Shown here piece after piece: positions 42,266-45,164 of a stretch of DNA of 64,000 nt; positions within the stretch are counted from its first letter, which is position 1, and every line of letters begins with the position of its first letter. Location of the stretch: NCBI GenBank assembly GCA_965223905.1, contig CBDCXV010000011.1, positions 1,984,001 to 2,048,000 of the forward strand, given 5' to 3'. Position numbers and translations under genes: made by a program. This DNA comes from Candidatus Latescibacterota bacterium. Its GTDB lineage: Bacteria > Latescibacterota > UBA2968 > UBA8231. A model generated the notes under the pieces. That model was not told where the DNA came from. It saw only the letters and a program-made list of their open reading frames with translations, and made no database searches.

Positions 42266-42354
42266 ACATAATGTCTTGGCCACTGGCGACGCTGCTCGTA
42301 GGGCGGCGGTCGCGGGGGGCCGAAGGCCCGGAGCCCCCAGTGGACCTGTTATGT
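42266..42354 (-). other. Integron attC site 3 (R' core mutated GTT->ATT)
   Basis: Minus strand ACATAAC-AGGT-CCACTGG...CCAGTGG-CCAAGAC-ATTATGT; imperfect palindrome, 89 bp. Confidence 0.8.
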
Positions 42355-42368
42355 GGAAGCCCCGCCCT

Positions 42369-42943
42369 TCATGCAACGCTGGGCGAGAGCCGCCTCTTTA
42401 TGTCCTGCAATTCCGGAACGGCTCGCAGTAGCGCCCCAACGGCGGTAGAGAAGTAGGTCTCCAGAACCGGAAAGAAAGGCGTTCCCCTCAGATCGCGCAG
42501 CTGATCGGGGTGCTTGCCACGCGCATGTAGCGTCCCAAGGACGAAGATCTCGACAACATCTCGATATGTAAGGTAAGGTTACGTGTGTCTTCGATCGCGA
42601 TGTTTGTCGGGTGATCAAGTAAGGCGTTGAGATCGGCTCGAAGTGCTTGAAAGCGCTCTCGGATTTCTGGCGCCACGTTGAGCTGCTCGTACAACGTCCC
42701 CACCTTTCGCAACGAGATACGATCCCTCCCGTCGCGGATGAGCAACCGAAGATTAGGGATCACCGTGTTGCGCGATTTCTCCGATGGACCTTCAAAGATC
42801 GACTCCCAACCGCGTTCTCGGTCAAACACGATGAGTGCTCCGCCGTTGTCGGTCACGAACTCCTTGGTCGCGCCGAAACTCGCTATCCGATCCAGCCTCT
42901 CGCGAAACAGCTCTATCGTTTCAAGTGCCTTGGTTTTCGGCAT
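42369..42943 (-). pseudogene. Cassette gene of unknown function, frameshifted by a 5-bp duplication
   Basis: TAAGG is duplicated at 42569-42578. Removing one copy extends the ORF (LTYRDVVEIFVLG...PFFPVLE) to TGA 42369, just before attC3. Confidence 0.65.
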
Positions 42944-42965
42944 CTCACATGCTCGAAAGGCTTTC

Positions 42966-43053
42966 ACATAACGTCTCGGCCACTGGGGAACTCGGCGTCA
43001 GCCGAGTTGCGTGGAGGGCCGAAGGCCCGGAGCCGCCAGGGGACCTGTTATCG
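42966..43053 (-). other. Integron attC site 2
   Basis: Minus strand CGATAAC-AGGT-CCCCTGG...CCAGTGG-CCGAGAC-GTTATGT; 88 bp. Confidence 0.85.
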
Positions 43054-43111
43054 GAAGTCGGCCCGGTTCGCCCGTGTCGTCTAACCCTTGTTAATCGCAT
43101 CGGCCCCGTGT

Positions 43112-44317
43112 CTACAGGATCTCGATGCTTTGCTCACCGTTCTTGTAGTAGTCAATCCATCCGTTTACCTGCTCGTAGAGGCCTTCGTCCTGCTCTCGTC
43201 GCAGGAAGTAGTGCATGGTGTCACCCCGTTCCAGTCGGAAGTCTACCGCACTCGGCATGTACGGCGACACGAGCAACATTCCGTCTGCGTCGCGATCGAT
43301 CGCGATTGCCGCGAAATGAGGGAGCGCGTCGTACGCGACGACCTTGAAGTCTCCGGGCAGGTCTTGGACTTCTGCGGAGAACGATTCGAGCCTCTCGAGC
43401 GACGCTCGGATCTTCTTTACGAGTTCCTCGCCCCGAGCCTTCTCATAGGTGTTTGCGATTTCGGCGTCTGGGTTCAACACAAGGCAGACGTAATTCACGC
43501 CGCGCCGCAACAGCTCCAACACCTGCTGCCGATATTCGCCGGGCTTTTCGCGAGTCAGCAAGTAGTTGGAGCACGTGCTGAGCGCGGTTCCGCAATCAAC
43601 CACCTCCGCAACTGCATGACTCATGATCCGAGCCTTGGCTGCCTGACTTGGCCGCTGAGCAACGGTGTTGAGTTGGAACGAGCCTTCGATCGGGATTCGG
43701 GCAATCCACTCGAAAACGTGTGCCGGTGAGGAGTGGCTCTGGAGGATGTACACATCCTCACCCTCAAACGAAAAGTCGAGCGGTGTGAACTTCTCTCGCA
43801 GTTTTGCCGAACTCGCTTCAAGGACGGCTCGTGAGATCACTAGAGCGTCGCGGGGCGCGACGCTCTCAAGGTGCGCCACGAAGTTCAGCTCCCGCGAGTG
43901 AATCGAGCCGTGACATTCTTTGTATCGAAACGCCCCCTTGTGAATCGCGACGCGGAGGTGCAGGTCTCCCCGAATCCCTTGCGTTCGAAAATCCTCGCGT
44001 AAGCCGGGCAGGCCACGCTCCAGAATCGCGATCGCGCTTTCGAGAGCCGTGGTGTTTGCCTTACTCTCATGGGAATCGTAGATGACGCATAACCCTCCGT
44101 CGCCCTGCCACCCCCAAAATTCGGCGTACGCGCAGTCATTCAGCGTCCTCCTAGACTGAACGAGGTCGTAAATGGATTTCTCTAATAGGTCGAACAGCAA
44201 GTCGGCCTTGTCGCTTGGGTTCTCGCGCACGATGGCGGAGTGCCCTGACGCATCCACTTTGACGAAGTATGCGTTGACCAGCGGGACTCCCTCCTCAAAG
44301 AGGCTGTCAGAATGCAT
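43112..44317 (-). CDS. Class III nucleotide cyclase-like domain fused to a DUF5919/PLD-like domain (integron cassette)
   Basis: FVKVDASGHS, WQGDG, LRVAIHKG, ELNFVAHLES, LVIS; C-terminal LVLNPD, YDALP..AIAID..LLVSPY. Confidence 0.75.
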   Translation of the reverse strand: MHSDSLFEEGVPLVNAYFVKVDASGHSAIVRENPSDKADLLFDLLEKSIYDLVQSRRTLNDCAYAEFWGWQGDGGLCVIYDSHESKANTTALESAIAILERGLPGLREDFRTQGIRGDLHLRVAIHKGAFRYKECHGSIHSRELNFVAHLESVAPRDALVISRAVLEASSAKLREKFTPLDFSFEGEDVYILQSHSSPAHVFEWIARIPIEGSFQLNTVAQRPSQAAKARIMSHAVAEVVDCGTALSTCSNYLLTREKPGEYRQQVLELLRRGVNYVCLVLNPDAEIANTYEKARGEELVKKIRASLERLESFSAEVQDLPGDFKVVAYDALPHFAAIAIDRDADGMLLVSPYMPSAVDFRLERGDTMHYFLRREQDEGLYEQVNGWIDYYKNGEQSIEIL

Positions 44318-44403
44318 GAGGTCTTCTCCTTTCAGTCATCCGCAACGACGTGATGGTTTGACGGAGACACATGCGTACAAAACTCAAAGCGAATGACGAA
44401 TTC

Positions 44404-44495
44404 CTATAACGTCCCGGCCACTGGCGACGCCCGCCGTAGGCGGGTGTTCGCGGAGGCAGCCTCAGCGGCAGCAGCCACCAGTGGACCTGTTAGAT
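44404..44495 (-). other. Integron attC site 1
   Basis: Minus strand ATCTAAC-AGGT-CCACTGG...CCAGTGG-CCGGGAC-GTTATAG; 92 bp. Confidence 0.85.
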
Positions 44496-44513
44496 GATGT
44501 GACGCTGGGCCTA

Positions 44514-45095
44514 TCAACAGTTCTTGGGCATCTCCTTCCAAGCCCGAGAAGCGACGTTCTCAGCAATGTCGCGCGTCACCTCGATGAACTCCTCCACTTC
44601 AGCTTCTCCGATGTTCAACTTGTGGTCGTGCGCGGCGACGTTTCGTAGCCTTCGCAGTTTCCCAAGGCCCTCTGCCTCCTGAGGCGTCACCAACTCGTGG
44701 GATCGCAGGGCCGCCAGCAAACGCGGAAACGAAACCGGTCTGTCTTGGGGAAGTAGATCCAGGGCGCGCGCGGAGGACACGGCAGTCGTTTCCAAACCGA
44801 TCCATGCCTCGATGATCGCGGCGCGCGGCGACCCCTCACCAACTGCTCGATAGTAGTCCGTGGCCTCTTCGTCCTCGGCGGGAGGCAGTCTCTTGGGTTC
44901 CGCTGGCGGTTCCAGCTGCGCCCTCACGGCAGCGAGCTCCTTGCTGAACTCTACTTCAAGATCTTTGTACCGGAATCGATTTAGGTTCGGGAGCAACGCC
45001 CGGACGGAACGGCGAAACAACACGAGAACCATCACCGCCGCAGCGGGCCAAGCTAGTGCTTCAACGAGAGCAGCGATGAACTCTAATGTCCCCAT
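44514..45095 (-). CDS. TM-anchored HEPN-like protein (integron cassette)
   Basis: LAWP TM helix, SPRAAIIEAW, LRRLRNVAAH (RxxxxH motif). AGGAG RBS. Confidence 0.7.
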   Translation of the reverse strand: MGTLEFIAALVEALAWPAAAVMVLVLFRRSVRALLPNLNRFRYKDLEVEFSKELAAVRAQLEPPAEPKRLPPAEDEEATDYYRAVGEGSPRAAIIEAWIGLETTAVSSARALDLLPQDRPVSFPRLLAALRSHELVTPQEAEGLGKLRRLRNVAAHDHKLNIGEAEVEEFIEVTRDIAENVASRAWKEMPKNC

Positions 45096-45122
45096 AACTC
45101 CCTACAGCTAAACAAGCGTCAC

Positions 45123-45164
45123 TGCATCTAAACTAATTGCATCTGAACAAATGGGTTCGGATAA
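45123..45164 (-). other. Possible attI-like site or first cassette boundary
   Basis: Minus strand TTATCCGAACCCATTT-GTTCAGATGCA-ATTA-GTTTAGATGCA. TTAGATG is complementary to the R'' box of attC1. Confidence 0.45.

Follow-up and report, generated by a model that had tools for sequence, protein, structure and literature searches.

A probable integron-type cassette array without an adjacent integrase in a Candidatus Latescibacterota genome

Our analysis of 64,000 nucleotides (nt) from the genome of a Candidatus Latescibacterota bacterium (GenBank assembly GCA_965223905.1, contig CBDCXV010000011.1, positions 1,984,001 to 2,048,000; this whole stretch is called the window below) concerns three related imperfect palindromes, each about 85 nt long, that follow genes on its minus strand. 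[quoted passage not shown] A reading made from the sequence alone had proposed an integron-like array of this kind, with a single family of attC-like sites, and this proposal is now supported by the clustering of the sites, their position at gene ends, the covariation of their stems and the exchange of their outer arms between neighbours.

Results

A single family of hairpin sites at the ends of genes

Relatives of the sites were sought by a pattern scan that covered one genome per species, in a collection that does not include the window's own genome, and that looked for GGCCACTGG followed after a gap of 35-65 nt by CCANNGGACCTGTTA. It returned 17 matches in 14 loci, 11 of these loci lying in Gemmatimonadota and three in Latescibacterota. 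With a covariance model built from the folded alignment of 20 seed sites (R1), 60 sites were recognised at E <= 5e-4 in the window and the 14 loci taken together, those of the loci forming same-strand arrays of up to 11 sites at a spacing of roughly 300-2500 nt. The similarity between the window and the loci is restricted to the sites (77-94% identity; site 2 is 87-94% identical to sites in loci L004, L006, L008 and L012), and seven window proteins found no match in the 14 loci by tblastn; shared sites combined with unrelated cargo are the pattern of cassette arrays. An unfiltered scan of the 64 kb with R1 found only the three sites listed first below, the next best candidate scoring 12.3 bits (E 0.41), while a repeat search in the window returned two three-copy families that correspond to the left and right halves of these sites.

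42269-42351, plus strand: core of attC-like site 1, at the distal end of the array (R1 match 42258-42366, 96.4 bits, E 5e-25)
42969-43050, plus strand: core of attC-like site 2 (R1 match 42958-43065, 105.3 bits)
44407-44492, plus strand: core of attC-like site 3 (R1 match 44396-44507, 87.2 bits)
42263-42289, 42963-42989 and 44401-44427: repeat family of the left halves (repeat search)
42311-42352, 43010-43051 and 44452-44493: repeat family of the right halves (repeat search)

The palindromes are thus present where the sequence-only reading had placed them, and the ORF (open reading frame) coordinates bear out its statement that each of them lies 3' of a minus-strand ORF. They are spaced by 700 and 1438 nt, and both inter-site intervals hold an ORF that ends at a site, in a single orientation. 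The core of sites 2 and 3 is TAAC; that of site 1 is TAAT, the sole T at the C of AAC among the 20 seed sites. Exact copies of GGCCACTGG and of GGACCTGTTA are confined to the three sites within the 64 kb. With one mismatch allowed, the 9-mer GGCCACTGG is found 22 times in the window against 23.7 expected, which is chance level, so that short words by themselves are no proof. Rfam gave no match, either at the gathering threshold on the whole window or at E <= 1 on 41000-46000, and a search for tRNA and tmRNA genes found none.

A review lists Gemmatimonadota as having integrons (PMC8618304), and a large element on a Gemmatirosa plasmid is mentioned in the IntegronFinder 2.0 preprint (10.1101/2022.02.28.482270). 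Site 2 had no blastn match among 72,556 plasmids, a search that thus gave no link between the family and this large element. On four resistance plasmids (L015-L018), R1 did not recognise class 1 attC sites (best score 11.7 bits, E 0.5, away from a cassette end), a miss that is uninformative because family-specific sequence dominates the model. A proxy attC model made from the same plasmids was dropped, as only about 6 sites could be confidently delimited; the dfrA14 site delimited in L016 likewise has an R box of TAACG/TGTTA.

Structure and orientation of the sites

On the plus strand, the sites fold into a 5-bp R box (TAACG/TGTTA) that contains the AAC and GTT triplets, followed by a bulge of 4 nt (TCYY), an L stem of 11 bp whose 3' arm, opposite the AAC, carries one extrahelical base, and a three-way junction from which two small hairpins emerge. 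Hairpins in the inner arms had been noted in the sequence-only reading; they are present and co-vary across the family. Over the 60 sites, 95.6% of the cells are paired and 21 of the 27 pairs have changed on both sides, a number that none of 500 shuffles reached. Double changes affect 0 of the 5 pairs of the R box, i.e. this helix is conserved in sequence: 57 of the 60 sites have C-G where the last base of AAC meets the first base of GTT, and TAAC...GTTA is near-invariant. In the Latescibacterota sites the long stem is of quite different sequence, with both the pairing and the unpaired base retained. This extrahelical base, about 11 nt from the outer end, is A in the window sites and G or T in the Latescibacterota sites, and no second one is seen in the consensus structure. 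The core measures 76-95 nt in 58 of the 60 sites, the remaining two having cores of 147 and 149 nt; the published range of attC sites is 57-141 bp.

Three independent features say that the plus strand, which folds, corresponds to the attC bottom strand in all three window sites, and that the genes run in the canonical direction: the direction of the ORFs, the extrahelical base and strand-biased folding. Among 43 inter-site intervals, which remain after exclusion of an interval that has no ORF and of a single strand switch, the longest ORF is co-oriented in 32, and 27 of these 32 ORFs have their stop codon within 55 nt of the site. The bottom strands of published attC sites carry an extrahelical base on the arm opposite AAC (PMC5027507), as the plus strand does here. 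Finally, the plus strand is the more stable one in 47 of the 60 sites, with a mean advantage of 1.09 kcal/mol (p = 3e-5) and differences of 2.7, 3.2 and 1.2 kcal/mol in the three window sites; class 1 sites have a bottom-strand advantage of 2.12 kcal/mol (PMC5027507). A G-T pair that closes the R box in 56 of the 60 sites is possible on the plus strand only.

Outer arms are exchanged between neighbouring sites

The complementarity of the 11 nt outside the TAAC/GTTA core was scored both across a unit, from one end of a cassette to the other, and across a single site. Across cassettes the mean is 7.80 of 11 (n = 44) and 33 of the 44 score at least 8, whereas across single sites it is 4.40 of 11 (n = 60) and a single one of the 60 scores as high; random pairs give a mean of 4.52 of 11 (n = 3204; Mann-Whitney p = 1e-11). 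Low scores come mostly from intervals of 2-6 kb, which probably contain a missed site or an insertion. In the window, cassette C scores 9 of 11 and cassette B, the middle one, 8 of 11. The two ends of cassette A form an inverted repeat of 17 nt (44490-44506 with 45115-45131, 88%), and a further inverted repeat, of 14 nt, joins 42348-42361 with 42959-42972 (93%), in keeping with an earlier claim that the start of each cassette complements its own R'' box. Outer arms that match across the unit and not across the site indicate that the units were inserted as circles, by crossover at the core.

This arm swap also bears on a quite different explanation, that the palindromes are dispersed repeats such as repetitive extragenic palindromes (REP), bacterial interspersed mosaic elements (BIME) or miniature inverted-repeat transposable elements (MITE), or else structures at the 3' ends of RNAs such as terminators or mRNA stabilisers. 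The window sites share with REP, BIME and MITE sequences that they are GC-rich imperfect palindromes, intergenic and near gene ends, and they stand just past stop codons, with stems that co-vary as those of RNA elements would. We nevertheless consider this explanation highly improbable. Repeats and RNA hairpins alike would have their outer arms matched within a site, the opposite of the chance-level score found there, and the arm swap effectively rules them out. The family further differs from REP, BIME and MITE sequences in that it occurs as three copies in one cluster and on one strand, with none elsewhere in the 64 kb, and in that related arrays adjoin a tyrosine recombinase. REP-like elements unrelated to gene ends had been named as an outcome that would speak against the integron-type array, and what is found instead are clustered copies at gene ends. 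As for RNA structures, the strand that folds better is antisense to the cassette mRNAs, no T-tract terminator was predicted at the sites in a scan of 41300-45600, and Rfam, as said, offers no counterpart.

Gene modules are also mobilised by another route in Acinetobacter plasmids, where pdif modules lie between inverted halves of recombination sites and are moved by a Xer-family tyrosine recombinase. The pdif sites are short and double-stranded, with two arms and a short spacer. The family described here differs from them in consisting of 76-95-nt hairpins with co-varying stems, and no short pdif-like site is visible in the window.

The cassettes and the distal unit

The integron-type array would comprise the following units, in the order in which they are met from the proximal end:

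44410-45131, minus strand: cassette A, with the ORF 44514-45095 (193 aa, DUF4145-like, Pfam E 2.1e-5) and site 3
42972-44409, minus strand: cassette B, with the ORF 43112-44317 (401 aa) and site 2
42272-42971, minus strand: cassette C, with one gene in two frames (42488-42967 and 42349-42618) and site 1
41670-42235, minus strand: distal unit without a site of its own, with a DUF4258 protein (41882-42235, Pfam E 9.6e-14) and a small downstream ORF at about 41673-41888

Cassette A begins at a junction near 45131. The protein of cassette B has weak Pfam matches only and no match in PADLOC; its N-terminus is nucleotide-cyclase-like, and among the look-alikes proposed by a protein language model Guanylate_cyc scores 0.99, but this family is carried by 12% of the cluster members. 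A class III nucleotide cyclase is accordingly a lead only, and the protein could be a cyclase-effector fusion of the type known from anti-phage systems. The gene of cassette C, which has no match in Pfam, NCBIfam or PADLOC, is probably a recent pseudogene: three-frame translation places a 5-nt tandem repeat (GTAAG GTAAG on the plus strand, 42568-42577) exactly at the frame switch, and the second frame continues to a stop beside site 1. In the distal unit, the DUF4258 protein and the small ORF look like a toxin-antitoxin pair. R1 has no match to the left of this unit in the window scan, and nothing in the whole window partners the outer flank of site 1. NCBIfam and PADLOC scans of seven local ORFs gave sub-threshold matches only.

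Resemblance to described attC sites and arrays

A CALIN is defined in IntegronFinder by at least two attC sites within 4 kb and no integron integrase nearby (PMC4889954). The window array is like published CALINs in having three sites on one strand, at the spacing given above, with no recombinase in 64 kb; its cassettes are of unknown function and without homologues in the related arrays, and insertion sequence (IS) elements adjoin it. It differs in the atypical geometry of its sites, and its classification depends on their being accepted as attC sites. Of the features of a complete integron, neither intI, nor similarity to attI, nor a sigma-70-like promoter was found in the window.

With class 1 attC sites and the Vibrio cholerae repeats (VCRs), the window family shares the AAC/GTT core, the R and L boxes, an extrahelical base on the arm opposite AAC (though a single one, at another position), the more stable bottom strand, the range of lengths and the exchange of the outer R' half. 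Compared with attC sites, its circle-junction complementarity extends about 15 nt beyond the core, and its three-way junction is conserved. Published attC sites have a spacer of 5-6 nt on each arm and, usually, an extrahelical G at position 16 and an extrahelical T at 23/24, separated by 6 bp (PMC5027507). In attC sites the AAC and GTT triplets are invariant, within boxes of consensus RYYYAAC (R'') and GTTRRRY (R').

Several points weigh against the identification of these palindromes as attC sites of an integron-type array. The first is geometry: the spacer is asymmetric, the 5' arm having 4-5 unpaired nt and the 3' arm 0-1 (4 and 0 nt become 5 and 1 if the G-T pair is opened), where attC sites have 5-6 nt on each, and there is one extrahelical base, nearer the R box, instead of two or three. 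The second lies in the means of recognition, since the sites were found with R1, a model made from their own family, and not with the attC model of IntegronFinder, and the pair counts come from an alignment fitted to the model, a procedure that favours pairing. Taken singly, moreover, the window sequences beat shuffles only weakly on folding (z = -1.07, -2.05 and -1.91 for the three sites), and the structure owes its significance to the comparison of the family and not to these three folds by themselves. An antisense longest ORF is seen in 11 of the 43 intervals, some of these 11 holding IS elements or being long. The flank test, being symmetric, gives neither the orientation of the sites nor the core that is cut. 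Lastly, neither an integrase remnant nor a recognisable attI nor a promoter of the sigma-70-like type is seen in the non-coding stretch upstream of the array (45132-45424).

A missing integrase and signs of decay at the proximal end

The sequence-only reading had seen no tyrosine recombinase beside the array, and the searches agree: PF00589 is found in 0 of the 60 window ORFs, tblastn of the window with two related recombinases reaches no better E than 0.13, and for a profile of 120 homologues, whose positive controls were recovered, the lowest E over 1171 six-frame segments of the window is 3.9. The attI-like end named in that reading, in contrast, found no support, as the junction region (45090-45520) shares chance-level words only with the integrase-side regions of L004 and L008. 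The junction has one T more than the complement of cassette A's inner box, a 1-nt indel. The scan of 41300-45600 for promoters, confined to the sigma-70-like type, found one promoter-like site against 1.4 expected. The features around the array are:

45115-45131: proximal junction, start of cassette A, reading on the minus strand AG immediately before the junction and TTTAGATG immediately after it
45132-45424: non-coding stretch upstream of the array (three-frame reading, promoter scan, profile search)
45491-45907, minus strand: 5'-truncated fragment of an unknown gene, cut short by an IS fragment, with no family match
45841-46869, plus strand: 5'-truncated IS copy of the DDE_Tnp_1_4 type (Pfam, repeats)
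46981-48444, plus strand: ISL3 element with inverted ends (Pfam, repeats)
about 48445-49644, plus strand: second truncated DDE_Tnp_1_4 copy (Pfam, repeats)
41418-41478, plus strand: left copy of a direct repeat (local alignment)
45425-45482, plus strand: right copy of the direct repeat (local alignment)

The two truncated DDE_Tnp_1_4 copies and the ISL3 element account for the IS debris that had been reported to follow the array. Given this debris, the TAAT core of site 1, the frameshift in cassette C and the indel at the junction, the array looks, as far as its sequence can tell, like a decaying remnant beside IS insertions. The direct repeat, of about 60 nt, brackets the whole array with its flanks; its copies are about 87% identical and lie 4 kb apart, and the window holds two occurrences of its 30-nt core where 0 are expected. 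None of the 14 loci contains the repeat, which has no Rfam or tRNA match and gives no convincing fold. The repeats could mark the ends of a larger inserted unit.

Was there ever an integrase at this end? It is possible, if somewhat short of probable, that the array was built at a secondary genomic site by an integrase acting in trans and that it never had one of its own. No remnant of such a gene is found in the 64 kb or in the 300 nt beside the first junction, and the proximal junction is unlike the integrase-side junctions of L004 and L008. Among published CALINs, Cury et al. list insertion at secondary sites as one of the origins (PMC4889954), and an intI pseudogene lies near only 15 of the 279 that they report (PMC4889954). 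However, a truncated gene stands together with IS fragments at 360-700 nt from the junction, which makes the deletion of an adjacent integrase equally possible, and an origin at a secondary site leaves the bracketing direct repeats unexplained. The data discriminate in favour of neither loss nor secondary-site insertion.

Recombinases without the IntI-specific domain beside related arrays

The 14 loci contain 166 ORFs that are 200 aa or longer; PF00589 is found in two of them, and a six-frame profile search gives the same two. They lie in L004 and L008, directly at the start of arrays whose sites belong to the window's own family (101-116 bits), and are co-directional with the cassettes; at L014, the third array start observed, no recombinase is found. 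The two proteins are 55% identical and retain the catalytic R-K-H-R-H-Y residues. Their best solved relative is IntI4 (2a3v, E 7e-36); the match comes in two stretches, between which 61 IntI4 residues and 20 of the query are passed over. An alignment with IntI1 and IntI2 shows that 26 and 12 residues, the ALER motif among them, are absent from the two proteins and from two homologues. The additional domain specific to IntI (I2 helix, ALER) is thus missing, and the scores of the L004 and L008 proteins against the NCBIfam integron integrase model TIGR02249 (179 and 212) lie below its cut-off of 265. The I2 domain is described as recognising attC sites via their extrahelical bases, and its acquisition as the step by which a recombinase of double strands became one of single strands (PMC7790495).

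The recombinase family is large, with 6194 hits at E <= 1e-30 among the 8000 scored. In a tree of 25 rows without a Xer outgroup, IntI1 and IntI2 stand apart on a long branch, and the array-linked proteins of Gemmatimonadota (95/91) and of Bacteroidota (98/98) each form a clade, these clades not being resolved as sisters.

The layout of L004 and L008 recalls that of the integrons with an inverted integrase, in which the recombinase and the cassettes are co-directional (PMC13323075, PMC3575428). Chromosomal integrons are also described as having highly similar sites with a long, branched and variable terminal structure (PMC5027507). Sedentary chromosomal integrons of the inverted type thus have in common with our loci the co-directional arrangement, and with our family the similar sites and branched terminal structure; they differ in that the L004 and L008 recombinases have no IntI additional domain and score below the cut-off, and that the window has no recombinase. 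Published accounts of the inverted-integrase type do not include absence of this domain.

In L008, the stretch from the recombinase gene to the first full hairpin site includes two short sites with the pattern YTAA-AAACGCG-TTAR (about 4425-4400 and 3556-3527, minus strand). Both show flank complementarity of the cassette type, and one seems to end a cassette. They resemble a double-stranded simple site of the attI type (class 1 attI).

Similar arrays on Bacteroidota plasmids

The nearest plasmid-borne homologues of these recombinases (43-47% identity) are found in Pontibacter, Rufibacter, Chryseobacterium, Hymenobacter and Chondrinema. In four of the five plasmids examined (L019, L020, L021 and L025), an intact recombinase gene is followed by co-directional small ORFs; in that of Hymenobacter, the recombinase gene is split and duplicated. 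The plasmid arrays hold 5-8 co-directional small ORFs, and their recombinase again has no IntI additional domain. A reading of the spacers in L019-L021, three of these four plasmids, showed AAC...GTT hairpins. Two of these arrays were put through the flank test:

9359-15900 of L019: array on the Pontibacter kalidii plasmid
7359-14660 of L020: array on the Rufibacter tibetensis plasmid

Flank complementarity of at least 9 of 12 was obtained in 6 of 6 units of the Pontibacter array and in 7 of 8 of the Rufibacter array, against 6 of 36 and 9 of 64 non-adjacent controls, respectively, which are inflated because the best score per window was taken.

These observations bear on the possibility that the sites belong to a separate lineage, recombined by an IntI/XerA-like recombinase without the I2 helix, which would refine the description of the window as an integron-type array and not replace it. 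We regard it as plausible without favouring it outright. A recombinase without the domain stands at the start of two arrays of the window's site family, four Bacteroidota plasmids have a similar layout, and the arm swap recurs in L019 and L020. On the other hand, the recombinase is present at only two of the three array starts observed, a canonical IntI could lie elsewhere in the L004 and L008 genomes, and the tree does not join the two array-linked clades. Other members of the family stand next to IS91 transposases or are isolated, so that membership alone is no proof of cassette recombination, and the plasmid flank test has the inflated control just mentioned. Since some members are paired with IS91 and others linked to arrays, the recombinase family has at least two genomic lifestyles.

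One of the IS91 neighbours is a homologue of 41% identity on a Clostridium estertheticum plasmid (L023, 4983-7020), which overlaps the start of an IS91-family transposase gene; the pairing of recombinase and IS91 recurs in several Clostridium plasmids. Several of the Bacteroidota plasmid arrays have IS110-family transposase and group II intron genes inserted in them. Both kinds of element are known to target attC sites.

Discussion

In the mechanism that we propose for the window array, each cassette would consist of one promoterless-looking minus-strand ORF followed by a recombination site of about 85 nt. It would have entered as a circle when a tyrosine recombinase made a crossover within the TAAC core, on the bottom strand in its folded state, and the outer half of each site would thereby belong to the neighbouring cassette. 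Any further movement would require an enzyme encoded elsewhere in the genome. To judge from its relatives, the cognate enzyme may be an IntI/XerA-like recombinase without the IntI-specific domain, encoded upstream of the cassettes and co-directional with them.

Tentatively, and with rather less confidence than not, we suggest that the arrays of Gemmatimonadota, Latescibacterota and Bacteroidota represent an unrecognised integron-like branch in the Fibrobacterota-Chlorobiota-Bacteroidota (FCB) group, in which co-directional tyrosine recombinases of the IntI/XerA-like kind, having lost the I2 helix or never had it, would recombine hairpin sites whose unpaired positions follow another geometry. 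That the domain-less recombinases are the true cognate system has, on the basis of two loci and four plasmids, about one chance in three. If it were so, the recombination of cassettes through single-stranded hairpins would be independent of I2, a domain deemed the key innovation of integron integrases, and many environmental 'CALINs' and 'integron-type recombinases without attC' would be complete elements of the type described. Of the contigs with 'integron-type' recombinases in one study, 97.4% lacked attC sites detectable by IntegronFinder (PMC13323075); arrays with domain-less recombinases may help to explain such contigs.

As a plain CALIN, the window array would be an ordinary find, 2961 CALINs having been counted in RefSeq with IntegronFinder 2.0 (10.1101/2022.02.28.482270). 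Its value lies in a site family of unusual geometry and in the recombinases without I2 that accompany its relatives, which together make a new variant worth following. A literature search, in a library with few subscription journals, found no description of the site family or of arrays with domain-less recombinases. The family provides attC-like sites with strong covariation for phyla in which integrons are barely described, and the swap of outer arms is a clean computational test that separates cassette sites from other palindromes. The occurrence of the same layout on plasmids of cultured Bacteroidota makes tests at the bench feasible.

Other genes in the window

A ceramidase-like gene flanks the array; its best named relatives (75-81% identity) are in metagenome-assembled genomes of Latescibacterota and Gemmatimonadota. 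The ORF 35251-36831 (minus strand) has an Antibiotic_NAT aminoglycoside 3-N-acetyltransferase domain (E 3e-44) and overlaps a larger ORF with fn3 domains (33471-36167), and a HigA-like antidote ORF (dnstrm_HI1420) lies at 37326-37640 (plus strand). The IS elements of the window include ISL3, an IS4/5-like one (54177-55025) and DDE_3 (62871-63995). The window is also rich in defence-like genes (6244-10158, 16161-17866, 17955-22865 and 52377-52841), among them a helicase-nuclease of 1305 aa with DUF4011, AAA_11, AAA_12 and MTES_1575 domains, a pair made of DUF3226 and an AAA_15/AAA_21 ATPase, a fusion of Mrr, ResIII, helicase and methylase of 1637 aa, and a lone Cas_GSU0053 fragment.

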